A stretch of 64,000 nucleotides of DNA, taken from NCBI GenBank assembly GCA_043800725.1, contig JAZDMR010000011.1, positions 21,369 to 85,368 of the forward strand. The letters are read 5' to 3'. Within the stretch, counting starts at the first letter, position 1; every line of letters begins with the position of its first letter. A program made the position numbers and the translations under genes. Under the pieces are notes generated by a model, which had not been told where the DNA came from, ran no database searches, and was given only the letters and a program-made list of their open reading frames with translations. The stretch is from a bacterium (GTDB lineage Bacteria; Patescibacteriota; Patescibacteriia; HK-STAS-PATE-3). Positions 29-61,902 of the stretch are shown here, one piece after another.

Positions 29-274
29 TTGGCATTAAACTTTTTGTTAGCACTGACTGGTTATGTACCAGGGTTTGCCTATATTCGTCAAGTCCCCAAA
101 TTAATTGACCAAGTCAATGTGGGTGTATTTATTAATGTTTTTATATTATTTGAGGTGATCCTTATAGAAGGGATATTTGCTTTCTTGACAAAGTTTTTCA
201 AAGTTTTGCCAATCTTTTTTGGTAGCTTTATTTCTCCACCATTTGGATTTTTCGAAAGAAAATCCTTGCATTAA
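29..274 (+). CDS. hypothetical small hydrophobic protein (window edge; weak)
   Basis: 81-aa ORF, hydrophobic composition; no recognizable motif. Confidence 0.2.
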   Translation: MALNFLLALTGYVPGFAYIRQVPKLIDQVNVGVFINVFILFEVILIEGIFAFLTKFFKVLPIFFGSFISPPFGFFERKSLH

Positions 275-342
275 GATCTCTCCGAGCTGGGGGCTAATCC
301 TTTTTTTATTTATTAGATAGGCAACTAGTTCCGAGTGATTTA

Positions 343-885
343 TTAAAGAATGTATGGTAATTTTTGTTCGCTGATAATAGGGATCCAGGGCATTTCGGCG
401 CTGAATAAATTAATTACGTTATTACAGACCAAACCTTCTTTTCGAATATTTTGAATCATTTGTTTTTTAGTTTGGCCGTGGCCCGAAGCATCATCAATTA
501 ATGCAATACGCCAATTAGGCTGGTAAGATCCTTCAATTACATTACGTTCACCTTTTATACCCCTCTTATCGCGTAGACAAAGAAATGGAAGGCCAGTTTG
601 TTGTGAAACAGAGACTGCTAGTGGTGTGCCCGCAGTAGGTGCTCCGCAGACCGCATCGATAGGCAGACGTTTAGCAATCTGACCCAGCGTTTTTCCAAAC
701 AAGTTTAAAATCTTGGGATCCGAATACATCCTACGTGAAGCAATATACATGCAGTAAAATCTATCCTGAGCACCATAAAATTTCCCCGGCATTAGGAAAG
801 GGAAATCGGAAAATAACTTCAGAAGCTGCTTCTTATATTTGGGGCTAGCGGTCATATTAGTTGAGAATATATTTTGAATTACCAA
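343..885 (-). CDS. type I phosphoribosyltransferase (orotate PRTase-like)
   Basis: PRPP-binding motif 'RIALIDDASGHGQT' and 'VCGAPTAGTPLA' typical of type I PRTases. Confidence 0.6.
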   Translation of the reverse strand: MVIQNIFSTNMTASPKYKKQLLKLFSDFPFLMPGKFYGAQDRFYCMYIASRRMYSDPKILNLFGKTLGQIAKRLPIDAVCGAPTAGTPLAVSVSQQTGLPFLCLRDKRGIKGERNVIEGSYQPNWRIALIDDASGHGQTKKQMIQNIRKEGLVCNNVINLFSAEMPWIPIISEQKLPYIL

Positions 886-8692: not shown

Positions 8693-10029
8693 TAGTTAAT
8701 TTTTACTTTTCGGATTGATGTTCTGATGGCGCAACCCACGAAATCATAGCGCTCGCGTAGCATTTTTTCAACAAAAGACAAATAGGATATATTTAAGTCT
8801 TCTTTGGGTCCGATGGTTATCAGAAACCTTGGCGGGGCAGTGCCGATTTGCTCCAACTTTCTGATTCGGGGGTATTTGGTACCTTTCCCGCGAGTCGGAG
8901 GATGGCGCTGGATAATGTCTTTTAGCAAGCGATTTAAGTCTGTTTGCTCGATCTGCCGTTGGTAATTAATCCAAGCAAAGCTGGCTTGAGTCAGTAGGTC
9001 GTGTACTCTGGTTTTATTGGTAGCAGAAGTAAAGACGATCGGTGCCCAGTTTAAAAAATTGAAAGTACTGATCAGGGCCAGCTGGTATTGTCTCAAGCTC
9101 TGAGCGTCTTTATTCGGGATCAGATCCCATTTATTAGCGGCGATAATGACACACTTATTTGCTTCCAGTATTTGATTAACAATTTCTCGGTCTTGAGCAG
9201 AAAGATTTTCACTCAGGTCCAATACCAAAATAACAACCTGGGCCAGACTAATAGCTAGCTGTGACATGCGGCTGCCTTCATATTCCAGCGAGCTGCGGAG
9301 GATTTTGGTTCTGCGCCGAAGGCCGGCGGTGTCGATCAAGATGTAGTCTTTATCTTTCCATTTAAAAGGAATTTCCAGGGCATCCCGGGTAGTGAAAGGT
9401 TCCGGGCTGACCAAAACTCTTTGGTCATTAAGAATACCATTTATCAGGGACGATTTGCCCACGTTTGGCTTCCCCACAAAAGCGATTTTTAGTCCGGTCG
9501 GCGGTTCAAATTTCTTTGATGATTTTTTAGCCAATTGCCCAACAATCACGTCCAGCAGATCGCCGCTGCTTCGGCCATTCATAGCAGAGACATAATTCGG
9601 TTCGCCAAATCCCAAACGCCCAACTTCTGGAGGCACTTGCCGCTGGGCATTAATATTTTCAATTTTATTAGCAACCAAGATAGCCGGGATTTTATTCTTG
9701 CGAAGCCAGCGGACGAATTCTTGATCTTCCTGGGTTAATTCCTGACGGCCATCAACCAGTAAAAGTACCAGGTCAGCCTGTTTAACGGTTTTTTCCGTTC
9801 GATCTCGGACAGCCCTTTCCATAACGTCGGATTTATTTACAGTCCAGCCGCCAGTGTCGATCAGGCCAAATGATTTGTCGCGCCATTCAATATAAGCTTG
9901 GTTACTGTCACGGGTAGTGCCGGCAATATTCGTAACAATGGCTTTTTGCGATTCAGTCAGACGATTAAACAAGCGTGATTTTCCCACGTTGGTTCTCCCG
10001 ACAATGGCTACTTGGGGGATCTTGGTCAT
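8692..10029 (-). CDS. der: ribosome-associated GTPase Der (EngA)
   Basis: two tandem GTPase domains with Walker A motifs GRTNVGKS and GKPNVGKS, plus a C-terminal KH-like domain. Confidence 0.9.
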   Translation of the reverse strand: MTKIPQVAIVGRTNVGKSRLFNRLTESQKAIVTNIAGTTRDSNQAYIEWRDKSFGLIDTGGWTVNKSDVMERAVRDRTEKTVKQADLVLLLVDGRQELTQEDQEFVRWLRKNKIPAILVANKIENINAQRQVPPEVGRLGFGEPNYVSAMNGRSSGDLLDVIVGQLAKKSSKKFEPPTGLKIAFVGKPNVGKSSLINGILNDQRVLVSPEPFTTRDALEIPFKWKDKDYILIDTAGLRRRTKILRSSLEYEGSRMSQLAISLAQVVILVLDLSENLSAQDREIVNQILEANKCVIIAANKWDLIPNKDAQSLRQYQLALISTFNFLNWAPIVFTSATNKTRVHDLLTQASFAWINYQRQIEQTDLNRLLKDIIQRHPPTRGKGTKYPRIRKLEQIGTAPPRFLITIGPKEDLNISYLSFVEKMLRERYDFVGCAIRTSIRKVKIN

Positions 10030-10038
10030 TATTTTACT

Positions 10039-11532
10039 TTAACCTGAAGAAATCTGATTTTGGAGAAGGCTGAGCTGGCTTTCATTGCCCAGGATCAATA
10101 AAAAGTCCGGCATAGAACCGCTTATAGAATCTACGTCCAAGCCCAGTGATTGGACAGTAAAGTCAGAGCTAGGCAGCGAATCTGGGGCAAGATAAAGCGG
10201 AACCGTGGCAGGTATTTGAGCGTCTGGATAAGCTCTTTTGAGAATATTAAGCATTTCCGGCCTAGTGCCGTTTGTGAAATCATAGATCAGTGTTGTCTGG
10301 TGGTCCCGCGCGGAAGCATTCTCATATCTAATCACTTCAAAACCAAGGTGTTCTAGCAATTGCGAAGTTTGACTGGCCAGACCGACTCGATTGGTTCCAT
10401 TTTGGACAATAATGCTGGCTGTCTCAGTTTTACTTTGGTTGACTTTAAAAATATTATTAGCGATTTCCTGAACTTCAGACCAATCATCCCAGCCAGCTTT
10501 AGGTCGCAGGATGTAGGCTCCATCAGGGGTTGAGTCGGCCATAAAGGGGCTTTCAATACCGCTATCCAAAACCACATTGTTTATTGTTTTGGTGTTAAAA
10601 TCTTCTATCAAAGAAGCCAACCGAAGAATTTCCCAAAGCTCTAAGTTGGTTCTGGTGTGAGCGCCTAAGTCATCCAGCACATCAGAAATTTTTACAGGAT
10701 TTAGCAGCGTGCCAAAGCTCATGGCCTTTTCCCTGATGCCCAAGAGCACTTGCTGCTGTCTTTTTGAGCGGTCGAAGTCAGAAGTGCTTTTTCGGGAGCG
10801 GACATATTTTAGAGCTTGGTCGCCGTCCATTTCTTGGACACCAGCCTGAAAGCCGATAGTTTGGTAGCCGTAATTTTCAGTGGGATAGAGGCTGTCGACA
10901 AATGATTTTTCTACATCAATGGTAATGCCTCCCAGGTCGTCAACAGTTTTTTCAAAACCGGAAAAATCAATCCTGGCGTAATATGAAATCGGCATATCAA
11001 GAATCTCACTGACAACTTCAGCAGTGAGCGATTCTCCTCCGCCTGGGTAGTCGTCAATTAAACCGAAGGCATTCGCATTGTTGATTTTGCGATAGTTGTA
11101 GCCCGGGATGGGTACGTATAAGTCACGAGGAATAGACAGCATAGCCAGCTGACCAGTGGACGGTTTGATGCTTACTAGAATAATTGTATCAGCTAAATAA
11201 GCGCCGTCGTGACCCTCGCCTCCGATGCCTAATAGTAATATGTTGATGCGGTCGCTAGACTCGCCCAATAGCGGTTGATCACGATTGGCAACCAGCTCGC
11301 TTAAATGTTGGAACAGGCTTAATGATTCTTCACCAATGGCTGGCTGGTTATTATTAGGGTCTATCACCCGGGAAAAAGTGGCAAAGCTTACTGAGAGGCC
11401 GACTAGGACCGTTAAACCGATAAAAAAGCTCTTATCAAAAAAGTGAGACTCCTTTACTGGGGCAGAAGGAGCTGTTTTACCTTGGGTTTTTTTAGGCGGT
11501 ATTTTTTTTGCCTTGGAAATCGTTTTAGTCAT
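10039..11532 (-). CDS. LytR-CpsA-Psr (LCP) family cell-envelope protein
   Basis: N-terminal TM; LCP core 'ILLLGIGGEGHDGAYLADTIILVSI...LSIPRDLYVPIPGY'. Confidence 0.8.
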   Translation of the reverse strand: MTKTISKAKKIPPKKTQGKTAPSAPVKESHFFDKSFFIGLTVLVGLSVSFATFSRVIDPNNNQPAIGEESLSLFQHLSELVANRDQPLLGESSDRINILLLGIGGEGHDGAYLADTIILVSIKPSTGQLAMLSIPRDLYVPIPGYNYRKINNANAFGLIDDYPGGGESLTAEVVSEILDMPISYYARIDFSGFEKTVDDLGGITIDVEKSFVDSLYPTENYGYQTIGFQAGVQEMDGDQALKYVRSRKSTSDFDRSKRQQQVLLGIREKAMSFGTLLNPVKISDVLDDLGAHTRTNLELWEILRLASLIEDFNTKTINNVVLDSGIESPFMADSTPDGAYILRPKAGWDDWSEVQEIANNIFKVNQSKTETASIIVQNGTNRVGLASQTSQLLEHLGFEVIRYENASARDHQTTLIYDFTNGTRPEMLNILKRAYPDAQIPATVPLYLAPDSLPSSDFTVQSLGLDVDSISGSMPDFLLILGNESQLSLLQNQISSG

Positions 11533-23137: not shown

Positions 23138-24109
23138 CTATTTAAGTAAAGTATTAAACTCATTCTTTCCAAATGTTGTGAATTTTTGTAGGAAAGAATT
23201 ATAATCTTTAATATCATCTGTGCGATGCTTGTCGATGCCATGTGACTTATTCCAGTAGTTCATCTCAATAATAAATAATACATAACGAACCCTGGTTAGG
23301 TCATAAAGTAAATCCAATTCTTCCGGAGAAATCTGGTGAAAATTACGATAGCCGTCGATAAAAAGTTTCGCTTGGTGGGGTTTCCAATTATATGTGAAAA
23401 TTAGCTGGCTCATTGATACAGCAATATTTTGGATATAAGGACTAAAGGCGATATCGCTAAAGTCAATAATACCACTCAGTTTATTATTACTAATAATAAT
23501 ATTATGAAGTGCGATATCATTGTGAATTAATCCTGCTGCTAATGTATCAAATAATGGTTTGATTTGACGGAAGTCATCAAAAACTTGGTTGATCATTTTG
23601 CGGTCAATATATTCAGGGAGGAAACGTACTTTATTTTCAAGTTGTAAGAACGTTTTTTCATCGAATTCGTAGTTTTGTCGTGTTTTTAAACCATCTTTGC
23701 ATATCATGAGTGCTTAATCTATTTTTCCTGCTTGCTGGCCAATTTCATACGCAATTGTATTGCTAACTTTTTGTTTGTAAGCGTTCTTGCCAGGAATATA
23801 ATCCATGGTGATTGTGATTTTATTTTTAAAAAGACAAGTTAGCTTGTTTGTTTTTGTTTTATGTACATGCGAAGTTTTACATCCGGCCTGGTAGCAGATA
23901 TTCATAACAGCAACTTCAAAGAGAATAATGTCAATATTCAGACCCTTGCCTTCAAATATTTTAATAACGTATTCGCCAGTGTCAGTTTTTATATAATAAT
24001 TAGTATTCTCGTAACCCGAAACAAACAGTTTTACTTCTAAAAGTTTGCCCAAACCGCTATATTGATTGATAATTTCCTCAAGCACTGTTTCTGAGTATTG
24101 TTGTCTCAT
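23138..24109 (-). pseudogene. aminoglycoside-phosphotransferase (APH)/choline-kinase-fold protein interrupted by an in-frame TAA
   Basis: N-terminal piece (23714-24109) and C-terminal piece (23138-23707) are in the same frame, separated by TAA-GCA-CTC-ATG; the C-terminal piece carries catalytic 'LIHNDIALHNIII' and 'IIDFSDIAF' motifs. Confidence 0.5.
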
Positions 24110-24225
24110 GCCAGTAGTGTAGCGTTATTTCAACGAATCTTATGAAAAAAACATTATTTGGAAAAGTGAAGGAATCGGGGCTATTCAGGCTTAACACTAA
24201 ATTTATGATATTCTAAATAACGGAT

Positions 24226-25767
24226 ATGAAGATGAAAGATTTATACTCCATAAAAAATATTCAAAAGATCAAGTGGGGCATCTTGGAAGAGAACCGCCCG
24301 ATTAGCCTGTATCCGGTTATATATCCGGGCTGGTCAGATATTATAAAGAATACCGGTAAAATCCTAGGCAAACCTCAAAAAAATATTGCCTGCCTGCATC
24401 ATAAAGATCTTGGGTACATTTTTGTTGATCATAAGGAATGGACCGCTTTAGGTAGGTATGTTTTGAAAAAAATTATTATCCGGCCGGCCTGGGGCTTATC
24501 GCTGGAAAAAAACATTCTTGGTTATTCAGACAGACTGGTGAATTTTACTGCTAAGAAAATATTTTGCGTTAACCTAAAAAAGAAAACAAACACCCAGCTT
24601 TACCGGCTATACGAAGAATATATCAGGCGGCATAGCGAACTTTATAACCAGGCGATTATCCACGTGTATCTTGATTTATACAAACCCCACCTGACAACCT
24701 ATTTAATTGAATACCTGAATAGACAAATAAAAAAGACTGCTTATAAAAGCACTGCCAAAGAAGTGTTTACTCAAATAACAGTCCCCAAAAGATTATCCAA
24801 AGTACAGCATGAAGAAATAGCCCTCTTAAAAATCGCCAGTCGCATTCGGGCTGGTAGGCGATCTCAAAAGTTCGAACGGGAAAAGCTATCAAGCAGTATC
24901 ATTCGTTCCGTTGGACAGCATATCTCGAAATACAAATACTTAGGCTTCAATTTTGAGGGTCCGCCCTTTCCTGACCAATATTTTTGGAAACGGTTAAAAG
25001 AGTTGGCGCTTGATTCAGTAAGTCCTGAGGAAAAATATGCTGCGGTTATAAATAAAAAAAAGCAAGACCGGAAAATCCAAGAATATTTCAATAACGAATT
25101 AAAAGTTGATTATAAGCATCAGCAGCTTTTTTCCATTACACGGGGCATAATTTTTACCAAAGACTATCGGAAAATGAGCCTGGTTCAATCGTATTATGAA
25201 ACTGAAAAACTTTTAATTGAAATTGGGCGGCGGGTGAATCTGAACATTCACGAAGTTCGAGAGTGCCTTTTGCATGAACTAAAGAACATGCTGATAAATT
25301 CTCAGGCCAGGCCATCTGATATAAAAAAACGAATGAGGGGTTGTTTATTTGTAATTATTGATCGCCGATTCCCGGGCAAGATTTATACAGATCAAAGATA
25401 TAGAACGATGAAAAAGTATTTGTTAAAAAAAGAAGACCTGACTGAAGTGAATTATTTTCATGGCCAAGCCGCATATTTTGGAAAAACCGAGGGGGTTATA
25501 CGAGTTATTAATACTGTGAAAGATTTAAGCAAGATGAAAATGGGGGACATTCTGGTCTCACAAATGACCAATCCAGATCTGGTGCCGGCTATTAAAAAAG
25601 CTGCGGCTATTATCACAGATATAGGCGGAGTGACTTGCCACGCCGCCATTATCAGCCGAGAGTTAAAAATTCCCTGCGTGATCGGCACCAAGATAGCCAC
25701 CAAAGTATTGAAAGATGGTGATCGGGTTATTGTTGACGCTAATCAAGGAGATGTCAGGAGGATTTAG
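24226..25767 (+). CDS. PEP-utilizing-enzyme mobile (swivel His) domain protein
   Basis: C-terminal 'ITDIGGVTCHAAIISRELKIPCVIG' swivel motif; N-terminal roughly 400 aa unassigned; AT-rich. Confidence 0.6.
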   Translation: MKMKDLYSIKNIQKIKWGILEENRPISLYPVIYPGWSDIIKNTGKILGKPQKNIACLHHKDLGYIFVDHKEWTALGRYVLKKIIIRPAWGLSLEKNILGYSDRLVNFTAKKIFCVNLKKKTNTQLYRLYEEYIRRHSELYNQAIIHVYLDLYKPHLTTYLIEYLNRQIKKTAYKSTAKEVFTQITVPKRLSKVQHEEIALLKIASRIRAGRRSQKFEREKLSSSIIRSVGQHISKYKYLGFNFEGPPFPDQYFWKRLKELALDSVSPEEKYAAVINKKKQDRKIQEYFNNELKVDYKHQQLFSITRGIIFTKDYRKMSLVQSYYETEKLLIEIGRRVNLNIHEVRECLLHELKNMLINSQARPSDIKKRMRGCLFVIIDRRFPGKIYTDQRYRTMKKYLLKKEDLTEVNYFHGQAAYFGKTEGVIRVINTVKDLSKMKMGDILVSQMTNPDLVPAIKKAAAIITDIGGVTCHAAIISRELKIPCVIGTKIATKVLKDGDRVIVDANQGDVRRI

Positions 25768-49338: not shown

Positions 49339-49456
49339 CGCACCGTTGCAGTCACTGCGAGCTTCGCGAAGCAGTCTCGTTACTATTCGGTAACTGGATT
49401 GCTACACCCCGATGTAAGTCGGGGCTCGCAATGACTGCATGTAGATTACGGTGCGA
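49339..49456 (+). repeat. structured repeat element, family member A (long imperfect stem CGCACCGTTGCAGTCACTGCGAGC / GCTCGCAATGACTGCA..ACGGTGCG)
   Basis: shares 'GCACCG..GAGC-TT-CGCGAAG-C-AGTCTC' with the elements at 50578 and 55118. Confidence 0.55.
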
Positions 49457-49504: not shown

Positions 49505-50577
49505 TATGACAGATATTGAAAGTCGACTTGAGGAATTAAGGAAGCGAGTGGCCTCCAGCCGGGGGTTTCTTTGACCTGGAGGTAAAGCGCAACAAGCTAG
49601 CCGGCCTGGAGACTGATATGAACAGAGAGGATTTTTGGTTTGATCAGGAATCGGCTAAACAAAAAAGCCAAGAATTTACCGAGCTGAAAAACGAATTAGC
49701 TGATTGGGACACGATTTCCGATGAAGTCACCGCTTTATTGGAATTGGCGCTGGAGTCTGAAGATGACAATGAACTGGAAGACCAGACGGATGATTTGGAA
49801 AAAAGGTTTGCTAAGCTGGAATTCACCCTGATGCTGAGCAAGCCCTATGACGAGAACAGCGCCACCTTGGCAATACATGCCGGGGCGGGAGGCACTGATG
49901 CCCAAGATTGGGCTGAAATGCTTAAGCGCATGTATTTGCGATACTTTGAATCCAAAGGCTGGACCGCCAAGATTTTGGATGAATCGCGAGGCGGGGAAGC
50001 CGGTATTAAAAGCGTGACTATCGAAGTTGTTGGGCGATACGCTTACGGCTACTTAAAAGCCGAAGCGGGAGTGCATCGCTTGGTGCGCATCTCGCCCTTT
50101 GACGCGGAAAAAATGCGCCATACTTCTTTCGCCCTAGTGGAAGTAATCCCCGACTTTGGCGAATTGCCGGAAATCAAGCTGGATGAAAAAGATTTGAAAA
50201 TAGAAACGTCCACTGCTTCCGGCCATGGCGGGCAAAGCGTCAATACCACCTATTCAGCCATACGGATTGTTCATTTGCCCACCAAGATTACCGTTTCCTG
50301 TCAAAATGAGCGTTCGCAAAAGCAGAACATGGAAACGGCCTTTAAAATACTTAAGCATAAGCTCCAGGTACGGCGTTTGATTGAGCAAGAAGCCAAGAAA
50401 AAAGAGTTGCGCGGAGAGTTTCATTCAGCCGAGTGGGGCAGTCAGATCCGGTCCTATGTGCTCCATCCTTATAAAATGGTCAAGGACCATCGAACCAAGT
50501 TTGAAAATGATAATCCGCAGGATGTTTTGGATGGCAATATTGAGCCGTTTATTGAAGCGTATTTGAAGAAGAAATAG
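49505..50577 (+). CDS. prfB: peptide chain release factor 2 with a programmed +1 frameshift site
   Basis: N-terminal leader 'MTDIESRLEELRKRVASSRG'; canonical site GGGGGG-TTT-CTT-TGA-C at 49560-49575; body (49618-50577) has 'SGGQSVNTT' (GGQ) and an SPF-like motif. As given, the G-run length puts the leader in a frame needing a -1 rather than +1 shift. Confidence 0.8.
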
Positions 50578-50734
50578 GCACCGCACTGTACCCGTATCTC
50601 TGAGCAACGCGAAGAGTCTCCATTTAACATGTTTGCCAATTGGCCACCGCAAGGCGGGGTCCCGCTTCAAAATATTGAAAACTGATGACGCGGGAAGATC
50701 CCGAATCAAGCCTGAGGATGACAGTGCGGGGGGG
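50578..50734 (+). repeat. structured repeat element, family member B
   Basis: 28-nt identity with member C (CGTATCTCTGAGCAACGCGAAGAGTCTC); closing stem CACCGCACTGT/ACAGTGCGG; contains GCGGGGTCCCGC and CGCGGGAAGATCCCG palindromes. Confidence 0.6.
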
Positions 50735-50808
50735 TAATTGACAAAGCAAACCAGGTTGTCTAAAGTTGGGACGAATCTGTTGATTTTGGTGATAACCCAG
50801 GAGGATAG

Positions 50809-51309
50809 ATGCACATAAAAAACATGACGGAAATTCAGGATTTATGGAGAAAAATCCCGCCAGATGGGCATTCGCTGATATTTTTGCGGACGCCATTAAT
50901 GACCGATGACCAAGCACTTCAACCAGATGATTTTGAAAGAATGAGGCTATATCTAAATGCTTGTTGTCAGCTGGTCTCAAACTTGGTGCGGACTGGACGT
51001 TTATCCATCATGGTATATCCACTCAGTGCTAAGCACTGCCAGATTGCCAGCATGTTCGCGATGAATAGGATTCCGGTCCTATCCCCGGCTCTACCTGGAT
51101 ACAATGAGACGCAAACCGAGCTTCGCCTCAAACAGGCCTTGGCAGTCGAGGGAGAACCTCGAGTCATACTTTTCTGTGGCGCTCTGCCAATACCAGGAGA
51201 TGTGGTTCAGGTAGACGCAACATTTGAGCAAGACCTGGCTACTGTTCTGTGTGTAGCCGAGGAAGGTAAGTATCGAAAGACTTCCGTTGTCGTTCCTCAG
51301 TTCGCTTAA
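50809..51309 (+). CDS. hypothetical protein (about 50% GC)
   Basis: 166-aa ORF with an RBS (AGGAGGATAGATG); no motif. Confidence 0.4.
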   Translation: MHIKNMTEIQDLWRKIPPDGHSLIFLRTPLMTDDQALQPDDFERMRLYLNACCQLVSNLVRTGRLSIMVYPLSAKHCQIASMFAMNRIPVLSPALPGYNETQTELRLKQALAVEGEPRVILFCGALPIPGDVVQVDATFEQDLATVLCVAEEGKYRKTSVVVPQFA

Positions 51310-51360
51310 AAAAACGCCTCTGATTAATTTCAGAGGCGTTCCTATTTTATATAGCAAATA

Positions 51361-52770
51361 TTACTGTTTTAAATACTGAGCCCGAATATGCTTTTGTACT
51401 TGTCTATCCAAGCTTTTTAATCTGGCGCTGTATTCAACCTTGTAAGGAAAGGTTTTATCTATTCGTAAATATTTGGGCGGTAGTTTTTTAATTTGCTCAA
51501 AGACTAGTTTACGTATTGATTGTACTGAAGGCAGTTTCTTGATTATTTTACCCTGCTTCATGTAGCGCTGGAGCAAGGGGTTTTTGAAATTTTCGGTTTC
51601 CAGGCCGATAATATCTTTTAGGTATTTGCCCTTTTTAATAATGCGAAAGACTTGCTTTTTTCCGGGCCAGCTTTTTTTGCCGCTGGATAACTTGGCCGTG
51701 TATTGCACTCCTGATTGAGTGTCCACTTGGACCAGCTTGTAAACAGCCTCAAGTTTTGGATCATCCGCAGAAGTGACCGCTTCCGTATTAACTATAAACG
51801 TATCAGCTGGAACTTTGGCTTTTACTAATTTATCTATCTTATATTCGTCCAGGTTGCTGGATAGAGTGATTGTGACATTTTTTAAACCAGCTTTATCCAG
51901 CTCTTTACGCACATAACGACACTGTTTAGCTAAGTCACCGCTATCAATCACAACCTTGGTTCTTAGTCCTCGTTTATTTCGTTCTTGACAAACCGGGATG
52001 GCATTTATTAAACCTTGCTTCAGGTCGTAGGTGTCGATCATAAGTGATAAAGCAAACTTGGCAAACTTACCAGCTGTTTCCATGGCTTCGCGTTCGGATG
52101 GATAAGAGGCGATAAAGGCATGATAGGCAATAGTAGCTGGATAGATCCAGCCTGCCTTTGTTTTATCTCTACCGATTGGAGTGGGATGATTATCACTGCC
52201 GGTGATTACGCCAGATCGCATAGCCTTGAAGCCTGTTTCAAAACCCGGGGCCCTTTGCGGTGCAGGTCCGACAACGCTGACTTTACCACCAGCTAAGACA
52301 GAGCGGATAAATTTAGTTGCGTAGGTTGTGTTAGAGCTTAGCGAGGTCATCAAAAAGGCTGAAAACAAATTTGCATCAATTAACGGAGCGGTTATCCTGA
52401 CAACTGTTTCACCTGGGAAGAAAAGCGTTCCCTCTGGCATGGCCCAAACATCACCCTTGAAGCGGAAGCTTTTTAAATATTTACCAAAACTAGGACTGAT
52501 TAGTTGTTCTTTTAGCAATATGCGAATGATTGAATCCGAATAGCGCCACTCATTAATTCCCAAGAGCATTTCCTCTAATCCAGTAAAAACCATGAAGTTT
52601 CTGTTTTTTGGCATGTCACGTACCACCAGATCAAATGTGCCTATTGATTCACGCATAGGACTGTCATACCATAGAGAGCTGACCATATAGATCTGGTCAA
52701 GGTCATTGACTGGTAAATCAGCCTGAGTGAAATGTTTATCAGAGTATTTAATATTAGATGAACTTGCCAT
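51361..52770 (-). CDS. nicotinate phosphoribosyltransferase family protein (PncB/NAPRTase-like)
   Basis: 469 aa; NAPRT-like segments 'PATIAYHAFI' (GT.AH.W analog), 'VIDSGDL', 'TLSSNLDE'. Confidence 0.6.
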   Translation of the reverse strand: MASSSNIKYSDKHFTQADLPVNDLDQIYMVSSLWYDSPMRESIGTFDLVVRDMPKNRNFMVFTGLEEMLLGINEWRYSDSIIRILLKEQLISPSFGKYLKSFRFKGDVWAMPEGTLFFPGETVVRITAPLIDANLFSAFLMTSLSSNTTYATKFIRSVLAGGKVSVVGPAPQRAPGFETGFKAMRSGVITGSDNHPTPIGRDKTKAGWIYPATIAYHAFIASYPSEREAMETAGKFAKFALSLMIDTYDLKQGLINAIPVCQERNKRGLRTKVVIDSGDLAKQCRYVRKELDKAGLKNVTITLSSNLDEYKIDKLVKAKVPADTFIVNTEAVTSADDPKLEAVYKLVQVDTQSGVQYTAKLSSGKKSWPGKKQVFRIIKKGKYLKDIIGLETENFKNPLLQRYMKQGKIIKKLPSVQSIRKLVFEQIKKLPPKYLRIDKTFPYKVEYSARLKSLDRQVQKHIRAQYLKQ

Positions 52771-53461
52771 TTTGTTTTTTTATTAGCTGGTGGAATTTAT
52801 CCCATTTGCTAGGATCCTCATCCCATTCCCGCAGATGAGTGATATTATCTTTCACTATGTCGCACAATTCTTTGGAAATATGGCCGGCCTCTTGCATAGC
52901 CTTGAACCAGCCAAGCCAGGTTAAAAAATAATGGATTGGAATATTTGAATCCTCAATTGATTTTCTTCCTCTATCAATATTGGATTGCTGCACTTCCTTA
53001 GCGTCTGTTATGACGACAATTGCATTGACCTTGCCCCGCACTTCTTCAAGAAAATCAATAGCCTTTCGCTTGCTATTGCCAGCAGACATACCATCATCAA
53101 TAATCACATAGGTCCAGCCCGGCTGAGTATGGCCCTCGACGCTAAAGCGCGCACCAGTCTTTTTTTCTTTGCGAGTAACCACCAGAGGCTTGTTCAGCTG
53201 CTGCGAAATGAAAGTGGCCCAAGGGATGCCAGATGTCTCGATGCCGGCTACTGCATCAGGATTTATTTCCCGAACTACCTGGCCCATTTCATTGGCAATT
53301 ACTCGTAGCGAATCAGGGAAGGAAAACAACCGACGCAAAGAAAGATGAGCTGGTACTTTCATTTTTACAGAGTTAGCTTCGACCGGCCCCATGATTAAGC
53401 ACTCGGGCCGGCAAATGGCTCGGACAAATTCTGGGCTGGGCTGGTGGTGGATTGGTTTCAT
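52754..53461 (-). CDS. type I phosphoribosyltransferase, paralog 1
   Basis: PRPP motif 'TYVIIDDGMSAGNS'. Confidence 0.7.
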   Translation of the reverse strand: MKPIHHQPSPEFVRAICRPECLIMGPVEANSVKMKVPAHLSLRRLFSFPDSLRVIANEMGQVVREINPDAVAGIETSGIPWATFISQQLNKPLVVTRKEKKTGARFSVEGHTQPGWTYVIIDDGMSAGNSKRKAIDFLEEVRGKVNAIVVITDAKEVQQSNIDRGRKSIEDSNIPIHYFLTWLGWFKAMQEAGHISKELCDIVKDNITHLREWDEDPSKWDKFHQLIKKQNGKFI

Positions 53462-54165
53462 AGCTTACCGGTTTTTTGGTAGTGTTTTTTAACCTTTTGA
53501 TAAAGTTTCCAGTTGTCAGGATTATCTTGCCAATGATCGCGGTCTGCACCATAAGCCTGTTCAAGCTTATAAGTATTGTCATTAAAAAAGCCCACTTGGT
53601 GCAGATATTTATCTCGATCTTTTTTCATGAACATTTCATAAACTCTGATTTTACGTTTTTTTATCCAGGCAGGATAGTCTCCATTGTTGTCACCCAGAAT
53701 TACGATGATGTCTTTGATAACTAGTTTATTCTTGGCATTCATGATAAATAATTCTTTTGAGCTACCAGTAGCAATTACATCGTCAACCAAAACAGCGCGG
53801 TCACCTTTTTGATAATCTCCTTCTACTAAAACATTTGTAGAGTATCCCTTGGCTTTTTTGCGAATATACACCCAAGGCAGATTTAATTCCAAAGCAGTAA
53901 CGGCTGCCAAACTAATGCCTCCTGATTCGCCGCCGGCAATCACTTTTATCTTGGGTCTGATCTTTTTGATAACTTTAGCGTATTCTTGGGCAACCACTTT
54001 TAGTATTTTTGGATCCGACAGACAGAGTTTGGGGTTTGCATAAACAGGAATAAGACGACCGACCTGGATTTTCACACCAAAATCGTAATATTTGTAATTC
54101 AGCATAGCCTTGGCAACTCGGAGGTTCATAGGCAATTTTTCAGTTAATATAGTGAATATTAGCAT
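53458..54165 (-). CDS. type I phosphoribosyltransferase, paralog 2
   Basis: PRPP motif 'AVLVDDVIATGSS'. Confidence 0.7.
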   Translation of the reverse strand: MLIFTILTEKLPMNLRVAKAMLNYKYYDFGVKIQVGRLIPVYANPKLCLSDPKILKVVAQEYAKVIKKIRPKIKVIAGGESGGISLAAVTALELNLPWVYIRKKAKGYSTNVLVEGDYQKGDRAVLVDDVIATGSSKELFIMNAKNKLVIKDIIVILGDNNGDYPAWIKKRKIRVYEMFMKKDRDKYLHQVGFFNDNTYKLEQAYGADRDHWQDNPDNWKLYQKVKKHYQKTGKL

Positions 54166-54440
54166 ATATAAGGGGCTGGAACATAATAGGGCATACCTAG
54201 TCGAATGGAACAGGCTTTAAGGTTTTAACCCCATAATTAAAGGGGGAATCGAATATTTCAGGTGAGGAAAATTCATAGCAAAATTCACTCACGTATCCAG
54301 GTAGATATTTAAAAGGTTGACAAAATATACGATTTGATGTATAATTATGCGTTATTTGGTGAAAGTGTGTTTACACGCCTAGCACCGAGAACAACTCGCA
54401 AATTGAAAACAAGGGACTTCAATCATAAGGAGAGTATCTG

Positions 54441-55040
54441 ATGAGTATCAGGGGAAAGTACCAGGATCGCAATATTGCCATCCAAGGTGATCGTGATCCG
54501 TCCGAGGCTGTTGGAAGTCTGGCCGTTTTACTGGGCCAGAAGCTTCATCGCGCAGGGTTCGGTGCGATCGTGGGTGATGCGGGCGGCTTAGTCAAACTGA
54601 TCGAGCAGTCTGGTATCCCTACGGTCCGGCACGCTTTCAAGGGCGAGCCGATCGTCAGTTCTGAGCCTGGTCGCGCGCCTATGGTCAGTTGCGTTGCGGC
54701 TGGCCTGGAAGCTGCCAACAGCTTCGGCCTGGGTGATGATGCGGGAATCGTCCGCTTCAACGCCCATGGCATTCGCATGAGCATCATGCGTAGCATGAGC
54801 TGCGGCGCGGTGTTTTTCGCAGGTAGCGAAGGCACTAAGTACCAGCTTCTGCATTTCTTGGTCCGCAACCTCAAAGGCAAGGGTCAGCCCATTCCGATCG
54901 CGCTGATCGGTTGGATGCCGGCCGAGGTTAGCGGGTTACTGCAGTTTCTCTGCATGACCCAACCATCCTGGCTTCAGTGTTTCGAAGCCAACGAGGCTGG
55001 TGTCGACGCTGCAGTCAAGTTCCTTCAGGGCGAAAAATAA
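54441..55040 (+). CDS. LOG/TIGR00730-family (SLOG) Rossmann protein; GC-rich (about 58%) relative to its neighbours
   Basis: 'VGDAGGLVKLIEQSG' and 'FFAGSEGTKYQLLHFL' fit the LOG 'GGxxG...PGG.GT..E' pattern; RBS AAGGAGAG. Confidence 0.55.
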   Translation: MSIRGKYQDRNIAIQGDRDPSEAVGSLAVLLGQKLHRAGFGAIVGDAGGLVKLIEQSGIPTVRHAFKGEPIVSSEPGRAPMVSCVAAGLEAANSFGLGDDAGIVRFNAHGIRMSIMRSMSCGAVFFAGSEGTKYQLLHFLVRNLKGKGQPIPIALIGWMPAEVSGLLQFLCMTQPSWLQCFEANEAGVDAAVKFLQGEK

Positions 55041-55060
55041 TTCGCTCACAAACGTTCATT

Positions 55061-55096
55061 CCCCCGGGTTTGCTATATGCAGACTCGGGGGTTTTT
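55061..55096 (+). terminator. intrinsic terminator CCCCCGGGT..ACTCGGGGG + TTTTT after the LOG-like gene
   Basis: GC-rich hairpin followed by a T5 tract, 20 nt past the stop. Confidence 0.5.
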
Positions 55097-55117
55097 ATAA
55101 CTATTTTATCTAACATC

Positions 55118-55198
55118 GCACCGTGCTCGTATCTCTGAGCAACGCGAAGAGTCTCTGTTTAGCACCTTGCCAGTTGGAGATCCTTCGCTACGCTCAGG
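55118..55198 (+). repeat. structured repeat element, family member C
   Basis: 28-nt identity with member B; followed by 200 nt with GGGATCCCCG and GCGGGATCCCGC palindromes. Confidence 0.6.
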
Positions 55199-55420
55199 AA
55201 TACGGTACTGGACAGGTATTTCGACATGTCATTTTGATTTAAAAATAGGGATCCCCGTCTTCGCGATATTAAACTAGATCAGCAGGCTCCTCCCGCTTCC
55301 AACAAAAGAGACATCAGTAGCGGGATCCCGCTCTATGCGGGGACATGCCTGGTGATGTTAACCGTAATCCAGACTAGGCATGGAAGCCTAGTCTATCTGG
55401 AATTAAAAACGAGTCAACCA

Positions 55421-56446
55421 TTAATTGTTTGTAAATAGGTCTATACCAGTTTGCCTAATCCGCTTTTCCCAGGCGGGCCACTTTTTAAAGTATGAACCAG
55501 CCGGGTTGTCTACTCTAGAAATCAAGTAAATTCCCATCCATTTATAAGCCCGTAGCCACAAAGCAGTTAGTTCGCTATCTGAAATATACTTTGACATAGT
55601 TGACTGATATTTATCAGTAAACTGCTCAAGAAACTTATGACTATCTAGTTGCAGTTTTTTTGAATTATGCAAAGACATCCAGATCCAATGAGAAAGAAGG
55701 AAGCCCAAGTCATAGGCCGGGTCGCCCATCCGGGCCATGTCAAAGTCTATTAAACTGACCCGGCCCTTGGGATGAACAAAAATATTACGAAAAACAGCAT
55801 CACCCCAAATTATACTGGTAGAGTGTTTTTGGCTTGTTTTAATAAATAAGCTAACTGACTTTGGCGAAGCGTGCTTTTTCATGCCGCCAGCAAGATGACT
55901 GTTGACAAAATCTTTTAATACTATTGTGAATCCAGGATTAAGCTTAACTTTATTTTTTGATTTCCAGGTTCGGCCATGCATGGTGGCCAAGTATTTAGCT
56001 AGCATAGTAGCAATCTCGGGATGAACTCGATTCTCAGTAAATTCACTGGCCAATAATTTACTTGAACCAACATCACTAAGCACGCTAACAAAATTGGCCC
56101 TATCAAAGTACAAGACTTTGGCAATAACATTCCTTGGTAACAAGGAAGAAAATATTTTCGTAACCTGTACTTCGGTAGTCATCCTCACAGGAGTCATATA
56201 AATTGGCTTACCCCTGGCCACGCTGCGCTTATTATATTTTTGGGCTTGTTTTAAAAAGATTAATTTTTGTCCCTGGGACGTTGTTAGTCTAAGTTTGAAA
56301 ATGTAATTTACATTTGAAAAACTGATTATTTCGGTGGCATTAATCAGGCGTATTTTATTCCAGGGTAAGTGCTTAATTACTCGTACGTTAAAATAATCAG
56401 TAACGTTTTTAATGGTCAGATCAATATTTGGCAGATACTTGGACAT
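55421..56446 (-). CDS. phosphotransferase-family kinase (APH / methylthioribose-kinase-like fold)
   Basis: 'IIWGDAVFRNIFVH' (HGD..N catalytic loop analog) and 'LIDFDMARMGDPAYDLGF' (DFE..G.P.FDLG). Confidence 0.65.
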   Translation of the reverse strand: MSKYLPNIDLTIKNVTDYFNVRVIKHLPWNKIRLINATEIISFSNVNYIFKLRLTTSQGQKLIFLKQAQKYNKRSVARGKPIYMTPVRMTTEVQVTKIFSSLLPRNVIAKVLYFDRANFVSVLSDVGSSKLLASEFTENRVHPEIATMLAKYLATMHGRTWKSKNKVKLNPGFTIVLKDFVNSHLAGGMKKHASPKSVSLFIKTSQKHSTSIIWGDAVFRNIFVHPKGRVSLIDFDMARMGDPAYDLGFLLSHWIWMSLHNSKKLQLDSHKFLEQFTDKYQSTMSKYISDSELTALWLRAYKWMGIYLISRVDNPAGSYFKKWPAWEKRIRQTGIDLFTNN

Positions 56447-56542
56447 AAGCTAAGTATAGCAGATTTAAGTCAGAAGTATTGACAATTATCGCTTTTTGAA
56501 GTATTTTATTATTTACTTGCGGTAGTTTGAGATTAGGAGAAA

Positions 56543-56788
56543 GTGACGGAGGAGACAGCAATGAGCAGATTGTTCCGTATGGAACGAGGCAGTCGGGTTT
56601 TCGTTTCAGATCCCCCCAAAGAAGCTGGACTTTTTCTCACACCTGGTGACCAGGGTTGCCAGGTGAAGAACCTGGGAACGCAAGCCGTCAAAATTGAGGG
56701 AGGGGACGCAATAGCGTCCACGGAAGTAAGGACGATCCCCACCGAAACGAAGATGTGGGTTGGGGAAAGGCAATTCGTCCTCCAGTAG
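56543..56788 (+). CDS. hypothetical small protein
   Basis: 81-aa ORF; about 52% GC; RBS-like GGAGAAAG upstream. Confidence 0.3.
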   Translation: MTEETAMSRLFRMERGSRVFVSDPPKEAGLFLTPGDQGCQVKNLGTQAVKIEGGDAIASTEVRTIPTETKMWVGERQFVLQ

Positions 56789-56912
56789 CAACCAGGCATG
56801 TTCATAACCGCAAGTATTTAGAGGGCCCTGACTTTTTATGTCGAGCCCTCTTTTCTTTTTTGAAGAGTTTTGCTAATGTATTAATAACAAATCTTGGTGG
56901 CGCCAGAAAATC

Positions 56913-59700: not shown

Positions 59701-59832
59701 ATGGAGGGGGGAATCAAGCTGGCGGATATGATTGTCCAGGGTTGCGAACTCAGAGTTTTCATAAGAAGCCAATGGAGCAAGTGAACTTCGGTTCAAAACT
59801 TGCTCACCATCTCACCTCCATATCAGTGCTGA
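59701..59832 (+). repeat. roughly 110-130-nt structured noncoding element, copy 1
   Basis: closing helix TGGAGG/CCTCCA; internal GAGCAAG-TGAACTTCGGTTCA-AAACTTGCTC hairpin; anti-SD-like CACCTCC at the 3' end. Confidence 0.55.
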
Positions 59833-60092
59833 AACAAGAAAGGCTCAGACTTGAGGTATCCCACGGCGTCAGACTTTTGCCGGACGTTGTGGAAATAATT
59901 GATACCTCAAATCTGAACCGTTCTTCAAAACAACCCACCCCCAATCCTCACATGAAAGGCTCAAGCAAGATCATAGATCAAACTTGGGCCTCCTTCCCAA
60001 GCGCGACAGCATTGTTGCTCTTAGGAAGGAAGCTCGTTATACCTCGACCGAAATAAAATATCGGGTTACGCGAAAGATTCCTCTGTACTAAT

Positions 60093-60256
60093 ATGGAGGG
60101 GGTCCCCCTACGCCAAGGCTTCGGGGGACTAAGGAGAGTTAAGTTGGTGGATATGATTATTTCGGGTGCAAACTTGAAATTTTCATAAGAAGCCAGCGGA
60201 GCAAGTGAACTTCGGTTCAAAATTTGCTCACCATCTCACCTCCAGATTAGTGCTGA
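60093..60256 (+). repeat. roughly 110-130-nt structured noncoding element, copy 2
   Basis: about 85% identical core (60147-60256) to 59721-59832; same ATGGAGGGGG start and CACCTCCA end. Confidence 0.55.
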
Positions 60257-60732: not shown

Positions 60733-60777
60733 CTTCCCCCGAGTTTCCCTTTAATCAAGAAGGGGTGCTCAGGGGAG
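60733..60777 (+). repeat. bracket-hairpin repeat, copy A (CTTCCCCCGAG..CCCTT-TAATCAAG-AAGGG..CTCAGGGGA)
   Basis: near-identical to copy B. Confidence 0.6.
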
Positions 60778-60882
60778 GATCAAGTACTGTTCTTTGCATT
60801 TTCCTCCACCTCCTTATGAAAGGCCGCTTAGGCATTATTATCTCAAAAAGTTTGAGATTCCAAAAAAAGTAAGGAGGAGAAA

Positions 60883-61419
60883 ATGTCTACATTTGTGTAT
60901 TGTCCGACTACTGGAGACCGTGTCTTCGCACAAAAGGACACGGAAGGAATAGTTGTTGTAAAATGGCAAAATGAATGCCGCCATGTGGTTGGTGGGGTCC
61001 ATTTTTACTTTAGTGCGGCTGAGCCAAAGAAACATTGGCGGAGTCGCGCGAAAGTTCTCGCCACGGCAATTATCAAAAACGCCTGTGGCATTGCTTGGGA
61101 TGAGTGTGGAGAAGTACACCTGATCGTTCCTCACTCGAAAGCCTGGGCAACCTTCGAAATTATGGGTGCCGCATCCCCTGACGGCAACCCTGACCATAAC
61201 AAGGTCGCCATGATTCATAATGGGGTGGCCTGGCCATTGTTCGGCGATGCTGGACAGTGGGAGGTCATCAGGGAACTCCGACCTTCTGAGGATGGAGTTG
61301 CTCTTTGGAAAAGGGAGGGCAATAGGGTAGAAGTTACCCTATCCGATTCTGAGGAGGCCGTGTACGCGGCAAATTGGCACATCGCTGAAGTTAGCGGTGG
61401 TGCGGAGGAAATAGCATAG
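60883..61419 (+). CDS. hypothetical protein (about 50% GC)
   Basis: strong RBS AAGGAGGAG; 178 aa; no motif. Confidence 0.45.
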   Translation: MSTFVYCPTTGDRVFAQKDTEGIVVVKWQNECRHVVGGVHFYFSAAEPKKHWRSRAKVLATAIIKNACGIAWDECGEVHLIVPHSKAWATFEIMGAASPDGNPDHNKVAMIHNGVAWPLFGDAGQWEVIRELRPSEDGVALWKREGNRVEVTLSDSEEAVYAANWHIAEVSGGAEEIA

Positions 61420-61464
61420 TAACTCGGGGAGCGTGAAATATTTAAATCAGTATTCACGTTCCCC

Positions 61465-61512
61465 ACTTCCCCCGAGTTTCCCTTTAATCAAGAAGGGGTG
61501 CTCAGGGGAAGT
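61465..61512 (+). repeat. bracket-hairpin repeat, copy B (ACTTCCCCCGAG...CTCAGGGGAAGT), preceded by the GGGGAGCGTGAA/TTCACGTTCCCC hairpin
   Basis: perfect outer stem; 46 nt after the upstream ORF stop. Confidence 0.6.
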
Positions 61513-61569
61513 GCGCACCTTTAAACTTTACGGCGACTGGCTGTCGATGAAGCCAAATGAGGAGGTGGT

Positions 61570-61785
61570 ATGATGTTTCCCTTTGATATGAGTGGGGTTT
61601 TTTTGATGATAGCAGCATTCGCCATGGTAATGGTAGGAGTTGTTCCTAATAAGGGCAGACCCACTGTGAGTCTTAAGGGAACGGTAATAATTATTATTGC
61701 CTGTCTGCTCTGCGCTCTCATTATGTTGGAGATGTTTGGGGTGATTGACTTACTTCCAAAGGGCTTCTCGTCAGACCCTTGGTAA
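61570..61785 (+). CDS. small membrane protein
   Basis: RBS GAGGAGGTGG; 71 aa, 2 TM. Confidence 0.4.
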   Translation: MMFPFDMSGVFLMIAAFAMVMVGVVPNKGRPTVSLKGTVIIIIACLLCALIMLEMFGVIDLLPKGFSSDPW

Positions 61786-61856
61786 ATAAAAAACCTAAAC
61801 AAGTCAGCACCATCGCTCTTTATTTAAAGATCCTTATAGTCGCGTGACTATAGGAT

Positions 61857-61902
61857 CTTCCCCTAAGTACCCCTTTGAATAAGAACGAGTGTTTGGGGGA
61901 AG
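61857..61902 (+). repeat. bracket-hairpin repeat, copy C (CTTCCCCTAAG...TTTGGGGGAAG), preceded by the GATCCTTATAGTC/GACTATAGGATC palindrome
   Basis: same bracket ends with a divergent interior. Confidence 0.5.

Follow-up and report, generated by a model that had tools for sequence, protein, structure and literature searches.

A conserved cluster of phosphoribosyltransferase, kinase and LOG-like genes in a Patescibacteria genome as a candidate nucleobase and nicotinate salvage system

Genes and signals of the locus

A cluster of phosphoribosyltransferase (PRTase), kinase and LOG-like genes is found in a 64,000-nucleotide stretch of contig JAZDMR010000011.1 (GenBank assembly GCA_043800725.1) from a bacterium of the Patescibacteriota lineage HK-STAS-PATE-3. 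The whole stretch is called the window here, and all coordinates are positions within this 64-kb window unless a related locus is named. A preliminary description, made from the letters of the window alone, drew attention to five genes between two copies of a repeat (elements B and C below). The five open reading frames (ORFs) are present as described: hyp166 at 50809-51309(+), NAPRT at 51361-52770(-), PRT_B at 52754-53461(-), PRT_A at 53458-54165(-) and SLOG199 at 54441-55040(+).

The three minus-strand genes overlap one another, PRT_A and PRT_B by 4 nt and PRT_B and NAPRT by 17 nt, and therefore form one operon. PRT_A (235 aa) is its first gene and is followed by PRT_B (235 aa) and by a nicotinate phosphoribosyltransferase of the PncB type (NAPRT, 469 aa), which is the last. 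SLOG199 (199 aa) is read from the opposite strand. This GC-rich gene had been credited with its own ribosome binding site (RBS) and terminator, and both are found: an AAGGAG RBS and, at 55061-55091(+), an intrinsic terminator with a 13-bp stem (9 GC pairs) followed by a T-run, the strongest in the region. A sigma-70 promoter can be added to these signals. It is located at 54317-54345(+), reads TTGACA-17-TATAAT, agrees with the consensus at 12 of 12 positions and is the best such site in the region. Convergent with SLOG199, and beyond the region first described, is a gene for a kinase resembling MtnK and APH enzymes at 55421-56446(-). Its product matches PF01636 (1.1e-10) and, far below the cutoff, the methylthioribose (MTR) kinase model TIGR01767 (2.7e-15).

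A gene cluster shared with distant relatives

Look-up of SLOG199 homologues, together with a scan that used a 10-sequence subset of the 24-sequence SLOG alignment described below, yields 11 further informative distinct loci (L006, L007/L010, L008, L009, L011, L012, L013, L014, L016/L017, L018/L019 and L020). L005 also carries a SLOG homologue, on a locus too short to show its neighbours. In all 11 loci, the SLOG gene directly adjoins NAPRT and/or between one and six PRTases of the same type as PRT_A and PRT_B. Homologues of the kinase (31-42% identity) are found in each of the seven related loci that offer at least 2 kb of context either side of the SLOG gene (L008, L011, L012, L013, L016, L018 and L020), as in the window itself. 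L008 belongs to a named Patescibacteria single-cell genome.

Proteins of the other loci are 26-58% identical to those of the window. Since the same arrangement is syntenic in 11 loci this distant, assembly of the genes did not take place in this genome, and the horizontally assembled cassette that had been proposed does not survive comparison with relatives. SLOG, PRT_A, PRT_B, NAPRT and the adjacent kinase gene constitute a conserved chromosomal module of Patescibacteria-like bacteria. The functional unit thus reaches past the five genes to the kinase at 55421-56446. We found no description of this cluster in the literature.

The neighbourhood is of an ordinary chromosomal kind. In the window, the genes around the cluster are the housekeeping genes RNR, NrdR, FtsZ, HtrA and prfB, and L011 is flanked by Suf, RecJ and IscS. 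Orthologues in the closely related loci L012 and L013 are 70-95% identical within the module and 70-92% identical in the flanks, which are ordinary evolutionary rates.

Gene content and order vary around this core. NAPRT is found again in L003, in L008 and, as two copies, in L016, and the homologues are 84% (over the first 32 residues), 50%, and 45% and 37% identical to the window's protein, respectively. L003, which has the nearest relative of the window's three-gene operon (78% amino-acid identity), has the order PRT_A, PRT_B, NAPRT, and L008 has an operon of NAPRT and the kinase. The gene downstream of the PRT_B orthologue in L002 is not NAPRT. A second LOG-like gene is found in L006, L007 and L011, a ribokinase-like PfkB gene that matches ribose-1-phosphate kinase models adjoins the kinase in L011, and genes for NUDIX and MBL-fold hydrolases occur in L020. 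One to five proteins with phosphoenolpyruvate (PEP)-utilizer domains are encoded in L008, L012, L013 and L018 (four to five in L008 and L018). The C-terminal halves of these proteins resemble PEP synthase and rifampicin phosphotransferase.

Several details of individual loci are worth recording. In L016 (7470-12904), whose genome has 31% GC, NAPRT is followed by the kinase, SLOG and a second NAPRT, the SLOG gene is co-directional with its neighbours, and the OPRT-like PRTases treated below are wholly absent. A second, different SLOG gene (PF18306, LDcluster4) follows, and AAA_28 (NadR-kinase-like), transporter-like and UDG genes lie upstream. In L003, PRT_B is split by a frameshift, and a fragment of an rve-type integrase core (3-191) is found upstream of PRT_A where SLOG would be expected. 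The window has a PEP-utilizer-domain protein of its own (24226-25767, 513 aa), homologues of which lie within the arrays of PRTase genes in L008, L012, L013 and L018. It lies in an AT-rich patch (23138-25767, 32-39% GC), divergent from an APH-type kinase that is split into two minus-strand ORFs (23714-24109 and 23138-23707).

Nicotinate and orotate-like phosphoribosyltransferases

The product of 51361-52770 is, by its profile matches, a bona fide nicotinate phosphoribosyltransferase, as had been proposed. It scores 302 bits against the TIGR01513 equivalog, above the cutoff of 297.4, and contains both terminal domains (NAPRTase_N, PF17767, 6e-18; NAPRTase_C, PF17956, 2e-13). The closest solved structure is PDB 2f7f (3e-42).

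PRT_A and PRT_B are also what they were first taken for, two tandem type-I PRTases with distinct loops for binding phosphoribosyl pyrophosphate (PRPP). Both match PF00156 (PRT_A, 1.9e-8; PRT_B, 8.9e-15), identity between the two is only 26%, and their PRPP loops read VLVDDVIATGSSK and VIIDDGMSAGNSK. Their orthologues reach 79% (L003), 47% (L007), 56% (L012) and 58% (L013) identity for PRT_A and 46% (L002), 77% (L003) and 38% (L008) for PRT_B. A word-indexed homology search for PRT_B returns three matches.

The nearest characterized enzymes are orotate phosphoribosyltransferases (OPRTs). The closest PDB entries for both proteins are the OPRTs 3qw4, 3m3h and 4ohc: PRT_A matches 3qw4 at 1e-21, and the top solved structures for PRT_B are OPRT and UMP synthase. 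PyrE is the best match among profiles and structures alike, and the flexible catalytic loop, RK(K/E)xK...VEG, and the PRPP loop, V(L/I)(V/I)DD..(T/A)G..K, are common to both PRTases and all paralogues. The proteins nevertheless differ from PyrE in several ways. Scores against the pyrE model TIGR00336 (77.3 bits for PRT_A and 72.0 bits for PRT_B) are below the cutoff of 106.8, and there are two to six paralogues per locus. The PRTases from all loci also share a unique extension at the C-terminus, roughly 50 aa long, in which Trp residues are conserved (W..(D/N)P..W in PRT_B). In OPRTs, the Arg of the 'DR' motif contacts orotate. This Arg is absent from all 29 paralogues aligned; for example, the Arg of the VLVDRD motif in 3qw4 aligns with Asn in PRT_A. 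These features suggest that PRT_A and PRT_B belong to an undescribed branch of OPRT-like enzymes. The PRTases of all loci split into at least 10 deep clades (about 14), a diversity consistent with different substrates.

A relationship with the phage pathway for NAD reconstitution was considered and rejected. That pathway consists of NAMPT-like and Prs-like enzymes. Here, the large enzyme is of the nicotinate type by hidden Markov model (HMM) searches, and the small PRTases are OPRT-like, not Prs-like.

A third PRTase of the same subfamily is found at 155-885(-), adjoining dprA (857-1966). It is 55% identical to the SLOG-adjacent PRTase of L018 and is broken by a frameshift near 358-379, with its N-terminal part in frame -2 and its C-terminal part in frame -1. 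This copy is either a pseudogene or the result of an assembly error.

SLOG199 and its family

SLOG199 itself matches nothing in Pfam or NCBIfam (even at an E-value of 0.1), PADLOC, PHROG or the sequences of the PDB, and a word-indexed search retrieves only the protein itself. An exhaustive HMMER search of 1.84 billion cluster representatives recovers 24 homologues of similar length with 28-39% identity; all ten of those checked for cluster size are singleton clusters. The family shares the motifs vFvQGDR, NVGAYGxLV, aWGxRL, FFPGReGTLAHL and vALvGW. SLOG199 defines a rare, unannotated and undescribed LOG-like family.

An AF2 model computed from SLOG199 as a single sequence is unusable (pLDDT 43), and the 24 homologues are needed to obtain a confident one (pLDDT 92.9). 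The top PDB matches of this model in Foldseek are the type-II LOG 5wq3, YgdH (9us2) and TT1465 (1wek), and type-I LOGs are found as well (E-values of 4e-7 to 1e-5, TM about 0.65). Against 5wq3, 9us2, 1wek and 5zbj, the E-values are 4e-7 to 3e-6 and the TM scores 0.63-0.67, so that the predicted fold can be superimposed on LOG enzymes. Moco-carrier protein (MCP), DprA and ShosA follow the LOGs in the ranking. A fold search of BFVD finds generic LOG and DprA folds only.

Profile comparisons point in the same direction. The LOG model PF03641 is weakly matched by 12 of the 24 family members (best E-value, 3.5e-5) and the SLOG cluster 4 model by two, and the YpsA model of Pfam is matched by none. 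The family profile aligns to LOG structures over the Arg helix and the PGGxGT loop. Together, the model and the profiles indicate that SLOG199 has a LOG-like SLOG fold, a relation visible only at the profile and fold level. Its assignment to the LOG family in the preliminary description stands at this level and does not extend to recognition of SLOG199 itself by any Pfam or NCBIfam model.

Comparison with LOG and PpnN proteins (YgdH; PF03641, TIGR00730) shows what is kept and what is changed. The Rossmann-like SLOG fold, the Arg helix, the P-G-x-x-G-T loop and a size of about 190 aa are shared. In LOGs, the catalytic residues are an Arg that precedes the PGGxGTxxE motif and the Glu of that motif. 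All 24 sequences have R112, which lines up with the Arg of both 5wq3 and 9us2. The Glu is found in none of the 24 members: the motif is AGSEGTKYQ in SLOG199 and PGREGTLAH in the family consensus, such that the position is occupied by Gln in SLOG199 and by His in 20 of the 24. Because this residue is absent, canonical phosphoribohydrolase chemistry cannot be assumed. SLOG199 also differs in having no HMM match, in its N-terminal loop (QGDR instead of GG(S)), in the replacement of GGGxxGxMG by NVGAYGxLV, and in a gene context of PRTase arrays and an MtnK-like kinase.

Comparison with known conflict systems

Pairs of PRTase and SLOG genes recall defence systems, and the preliminary description speculated that the locus might be a nucleotide-centred conflict system. 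In a defence or toxin-antitoxin arrangement like ShosTA, the PRTases would be toxins that corrupt nucleotide pools, the SLOG protein would sense or neutralise their effects, and the paralogues would have diversified in an arms race. A PRTase-domain protein paired with a protein of the SLOG superfamily is the architecture of ShosTA, in which ShosT disrupts purine metabolism by coupling a PRTase activity with a pyrophosphatase activity and ShosA is DprA-like (PMC11961720). ShosA (8zva) is among the fold matches of SLOG199, and SLOG199, like sensor SLOGs, does not have the LOG catalytic Glu. The many deep PRTase paralogues, the swap of one paralogue between L012 and L013, and the rve transposase fragment in place of SLOG in L003 would also fit such a role.

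Closer comparison makes this explanation decidedly unlikely. ShosA is ranked 20th among the fold matches and superimposes with a TM score of 0.53 and a root-mean-square deviation (rmsd) of 9.7, compared to 0.65 and 4.2 for LOG enzymes. ShosTA is a mobile system of two genes, whereas the cluster comprises many genes on the chromosome, is syntenic over deep divergence among housekeeping genes, and is accompanied by NAPRT, kinase, ribokinase-like and NUDIX genes. A PADLOC search (PADLOC-DB v2), which had been suggested as a check, gives only noise at E-values of about 2e-3 (PRTase_III-A, Specificity_I and PD-T4-6) and no match to ShosT or ShosA. PHROG matches are weak and generic (NAPRT to a phage nicotinamide-PRTase family, 3.8e-6; PRT_A to a phosphoribosyl-transferase family, 4e-5; and others for the kinase). 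Relatives of the SLOG family are absent from 2.9 million viral contigs, the evolutionary rates between L012 and L013 are ordinary, and no nuclease, pore-forming or NADase-type effector is found near the cluster. The speculation is left with no positive evidence.

SLOG proteins of the YpsA type provide a second precedent for this explanation. According to PMC6459960, which draws on Burroughs et al. 2015, one YpsA clade is paired with PRTase genes and another is tied to NAD salvage genes. These pairs have in common with the window a small SLOG protein, a PRTase and an NAD salvage context. The fold and profile of SLOG199 match the LOG clade instead, and an MtnK-like kinase and PRTase arrays are outside that description.

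Base composition of the SLOG genes

The five genes had been described as a mosaic of differing GC content. The mean GC content of the 60 ORFs in the window is 44.3% (standard deviation, sd, 4.1), and hyp166 (47.5%), NAPRT (41.4%), PRT_B (45.6%) and PRT_A (37.7%) all lie within 1.6 sd. Only SLOG199 deviates. With 57.2% GC (z 3.1) and 64% GC at third codon positions (GC3; z 3.0), it is the GC-richest gene of the window. Since the other four genes are ordinary, the mosaic reduces to one anomalous gene.

The anomaly recurs elsewhere. SLOG genes exceed their neighbours in GC or GC3 by 12-20 percentage points in the window, L008, L012, L013, L018 and L020. In L008 (SLOG at 9953-10561), the SLOG gene has 54.5% GC and the neighbouring genes 38% (z 4.1). 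The values are 59% GC and 72% GC3 in L012 (10001-10603; GC3 z 6.7), 60% and 70% in L013 (10001-10588; GC3 z 7.2), 53% GC in L018 (10001-10555), and 56% GC in L020 (2385-2996), the last two in loci of 41%. In L005, the SLOG gene has 45% GC and the rest of the locus 30%. The gene is not a GC outlier in L006, L011 and L016.

The GC-rich SLOG proteins of different lineages are 26-38% identical (pairwise among the window, L005, L008, L012 and L013), except that L012 and L013 share 79%. Copies so divergent cannot be explained by a single recent transfer. L012 and L013 have kept the GC excess since they diverged, and, among 12 genes compared between them, SLOG has the best conserved synonymous third positions (0.70, against 0.44-0.66). 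For the GC-richest SLOG copies, folding of the mRNA is also much stronger than that of dinucleotide shuffles (z -6.2 in the window, -5.8 in L012 and -5.4 in L013). Control genes of the window average -0.7 (sd 1.6), and three of these controls reach -4 to -5. In most loci, SLOG is the lone opposite-strand gene between two co-directional runs of genes. Selection on the SLOG RNA or on its expression is a lead as to the cause of the GC excess.

Palindromic elements and the origin of the locus

The repeats that bracket the five genes are real. Copies at 50579-50643 and 55114-55177 share an identical core of 28 nt, a match that none of 100 shuffles equals. They are parts of longer palindromic elements, all on the plus strand, that begin within about 30 nt of the 3' end of a plus-strand gene or its terminator. 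Element A (49340-49454) follows the stop codon of HtrA, one gene upstream of element B, and is predicted to fold at -63.7 kcal/mol (z -7.6). Element B (50583-50727) follows directly upon the stop codon of prfB and contains insertions; its fold is weak (z -1.1), and its termini, GCACTGT...ACAGTGC, pair mutually. Element C (55118-55208) comes after the SLOG terminator and forms a long hairpin (-42.8 kcal/mol, z -4.9). The termini of all three conform to GCAC(C/T)GT...AC(G/A)GT(G/A)C, and A shares a central GAGC..CGCGAAG motif with B and C. Between A and C the arm sequences diverge, with complementarity kept within each element. No significant structure is obtained when the 65-nt repeat cores are folded alone; it appears only in the full palindromic elements. 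The elements have no match in Rfam, and the repeat core was not found in a scan of viral contigs.

An alternative origin for the locus would be a recently acquired island, in which the five genes were assembled or inserted between att-like direct repeats and SLOG came from a GC-richer donor. The direct repeats with their 28-nt identical core bracket exactly these genes, no other gene of the window deviates as strongly in GC as SLOG199, and hyp166 is an ORFan. The gene order also departs from that of L008, where NAPRT adjoins the kinase. Furthermore, two Logan contigs from one sample break with a 30-nt overlap inside element B, which suggests a further copy or a variant of the element in that sample.

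Other features of the locus make a recent acquisition highly improbable. The repeats are palindromic elements of which a third member, A, lies outside the supposed island; the flanking copies noted in the preliminary description exist at both ends and do not mark its borders. There is no integrase, transposase or tRNA at these borders and no recombinase gene within 49.3-56.9 kb. SLOG, PRT_A, PRT_B and NAPRT are syntenic in distant relatives along with the kinase, which is beyond element C, and four of the five genes have ordinary GC content. The SLOG GC excess recurs in lineages whose SLOG proteins are only 26-38% identical and persists between L012 and L013; it therefore belongs to the gene at this position and does not point to a recent import. 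No donor can be seen, since identity to the nearest SLOG homologue is just 34-39%. The element family behaves like repetitive extragenic palindromic (REP) sequences or miniature inverted-repeat transposable elements (MITEs), not like att sites of an island.

The remaining gene of the five, hyp166, is a lineage-specific ORFan of 166 aa outside the conserved module. Its signals are a promoter with 10 of 12 consensus positions at 50738-50766, an RBS reading AGGAGG, and a hairpin terminator at 51313-51340. There is no family match in Pfam, NCBIfam, PADLOC or PHROG, a word-indexed search of 5.8 billion proteins retrieves only hyp166 itself, and none of the related loci has a counterpart. The possibility that it is a hidden SLOG paralogue was rejected, with an hhalign probability of 0.1% against the SLOG family profile. 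Both hyp166 and the palindromic repeats are lineage-specific local additions, not functional parts of the cluster.

A candidate salvage pathway

We consider the locus to be the local version of a conserved, Patescibacteria-type chromosomal cluster that would serve the salvage of nucleobases or nicotinate and of ribose phosphate, a reading with a probability of roughly 0.55. Its core would be a set of paralogous PRPP-dependent transferases (PRT_A, PRT_B and NAPRT), the MtnK/APH-like kinase and the LOG-like SLOG protein. This reading is suggested by the company that the genes keep (NAPRT, OPRT-like PRTases, a LOG-like protein, an MtnK-like kinase, and ribokinase-like and NUDIX genes) and by hosts with minimal biosynthesis. 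Candidate phyla radiation (CPR) bacteria have a biosynthetic capacity that is limited and variable, and they make use of nucleoside-salvage routes (PMC5113843 and PMC7304191). What was first observed at the locus is largely real, and its nucleotide or NAD salvage theme is supported in general terms; a foreign mosaic island and a LOG enzyme, as originally put, are not.

The proposed pathway can be outlined as follows. PRTases, each with its own base specificity, would attach scavenged nucleobases to PRPP to form mononucleotides, possibly as heterodimers of the translationally coupled paralogues PRT_A and PRT_B. NAPRT would do the same with nicotinate. The SLOG protein would act on the N-glycosidic bond of surplus mononucleotides, or bind their ribose phosphate, to yield base and ribose phosphate. 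Its chemistry is probably altered because His or Gln replaces the usual Glu, and it may alternatively be a nucleotide-sensing partner. The kinase would then re-phosphorylate the ribose moiety and return it to the PRPP pool. In relatives, the PfkB ribokinase-like enzyme and swivel-His phosphotransferases resembling PpsA and rifampicin phosphotransferase (RPH) may add to this step.

A comparable logic of nucleotide recycling through ribose phosphates is known from the CPR and archaeal pathway of AMP phosphorylase, ribose-1,5-bisphosphate (R15P) isomerase and RuBisCO (PMC5113843). The enzymes of that pathway are entirely unlike those of the cluster, and no gene for AMP phosphorylase, e2b2 isomerase or RuBisCO is found in the window or the related loci examined.

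Several points weigh against salvage as the function. We know of no enzyme activity for any member of the SLOG family or the PRTase subfamily. Without the Glu of the PGGxGTxxE motif, N-glycosidase activity of SLOG199 is doubtful. The approximately 14 PRTase clades exceed what the canonical nucleobases require. The recurrent GC3 excess and the opposite-strand placement of SLOG are not explained by a simple metabolic role. Finally, the exchange of one PRTase paralogue between such close relatives as L012 and L013 implies some gene turnover.

An alternative is that the cluster makes or remodels a non-canonical ribosylated small molecule, such as a modified nucleotide, cofactor or signal. The PRTases would ribosylate unusual acceptors, decoration of these would be the task of the kinases and swivel-His phosphotransferases, and binding or trimming of the product that of the SLOG protein. 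PRTase clades that outnumber the standard bases, and loss of the Arg with which OPRTs contact orotate, are as expected for such a function. The PEP-utilizer proteins are similar to RPH/PigC-type phosphotransferases of small molecules, cofactor carriers occur within the SLOG superfamily (MCP is among the fold matches), and L008 also carries SbnI/SerK-like and Mmp4-like genes. This explanation is a minority possibility and rather doubtful overall: the bona fide NAPRT and the ribokinase-like gene point to mainstream salvage, no genes for biosynthesis of an acceptor scaffold are seen, and the genomes are small with reduced metabolism.

A more elaborate form of salvage, tentative and on the whole unlikely, is an undescribed 'base-swapping' cycle specific to Patescibacteria that regenerates PRPP without the classical route. 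The Glu-less LOG-like enzyme, possibly phosphorolytic instead of hydrolytic, would strip bases from surplus mononucleotides. The MtnK-like kinase, acting on the anomeric position, and the PpsA/RPH-like phosphotransferases would turn the ribose phosphate into ribose-1,5-bisphosphate and then PRPP, and the expanded, heterodimerising OPRT-like PRTases and NAPRT would re-attach scarce bases. In this cycle, the antisense placement, GC3 excess and mRNA structure of SLOG would represent dedicated post-transcriptional control.

Patescibacteria (CPR) make up a very large and mostly uncultured share of bacterial diversity and rely on nucleotides and cofactors that they scavenge. The way in which they keep their nucleotide and NAD pools in balance is poorly understood, and the cluster is a concrete candidate for this function that can be tested. 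It comprises an MtnK-like kinase, a new LOG-like SLOG family and a new subfamily of OPRT-like PRTases, of which a single locus can have as many as six paralogues, and two hypothetical families gain a context. The synteny of the cluster also corrects the tempting view of such PRTase and SLOG pairs as defence systems.

Other features of the window

Between the kinase and comEC is a gap of 466 nt (56450-56912) with about 50% GC and overlapping small ORFs on both strands. One of these, at 56543-56788(+), encodes 81 aa (75 aa in the gene call of Logan). The gap contains a promoter-like site, TTGACA-17-TATTTT, at 56479 and a hairpin with a T-run near 56826-56860, and it has no match in Rfam; it may encode either a small protein or an RNA. 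Rfam searches of the whole window at the gathering threshold, and of 50.4-57 kb at E-values up to 5, give nothing relevant; a weak match to a PyrR site (E-value 0.53, 29 bits compared to a threshold of 54) was judged to be due to chance.

The prfB gene (RF2, 49507-50577) upstream of element B has the +1 programmed frameshift site that is classical for this gene: a short ORF from 49507 stops at GGGGG TTT CTT TGA C (approximately 49560-49575), and the listed ORF of 319 aa is therefore the downstream frame only.

Two other repeats are found further along the window. A 93-nt direct repeat with 88% identity and a spacing of 424 nt occupies 59740-60256. A 44-nt element is present at 60733-61900 in two identical copies and one 73% copy, and the Logan contig L001 ends inside this element.

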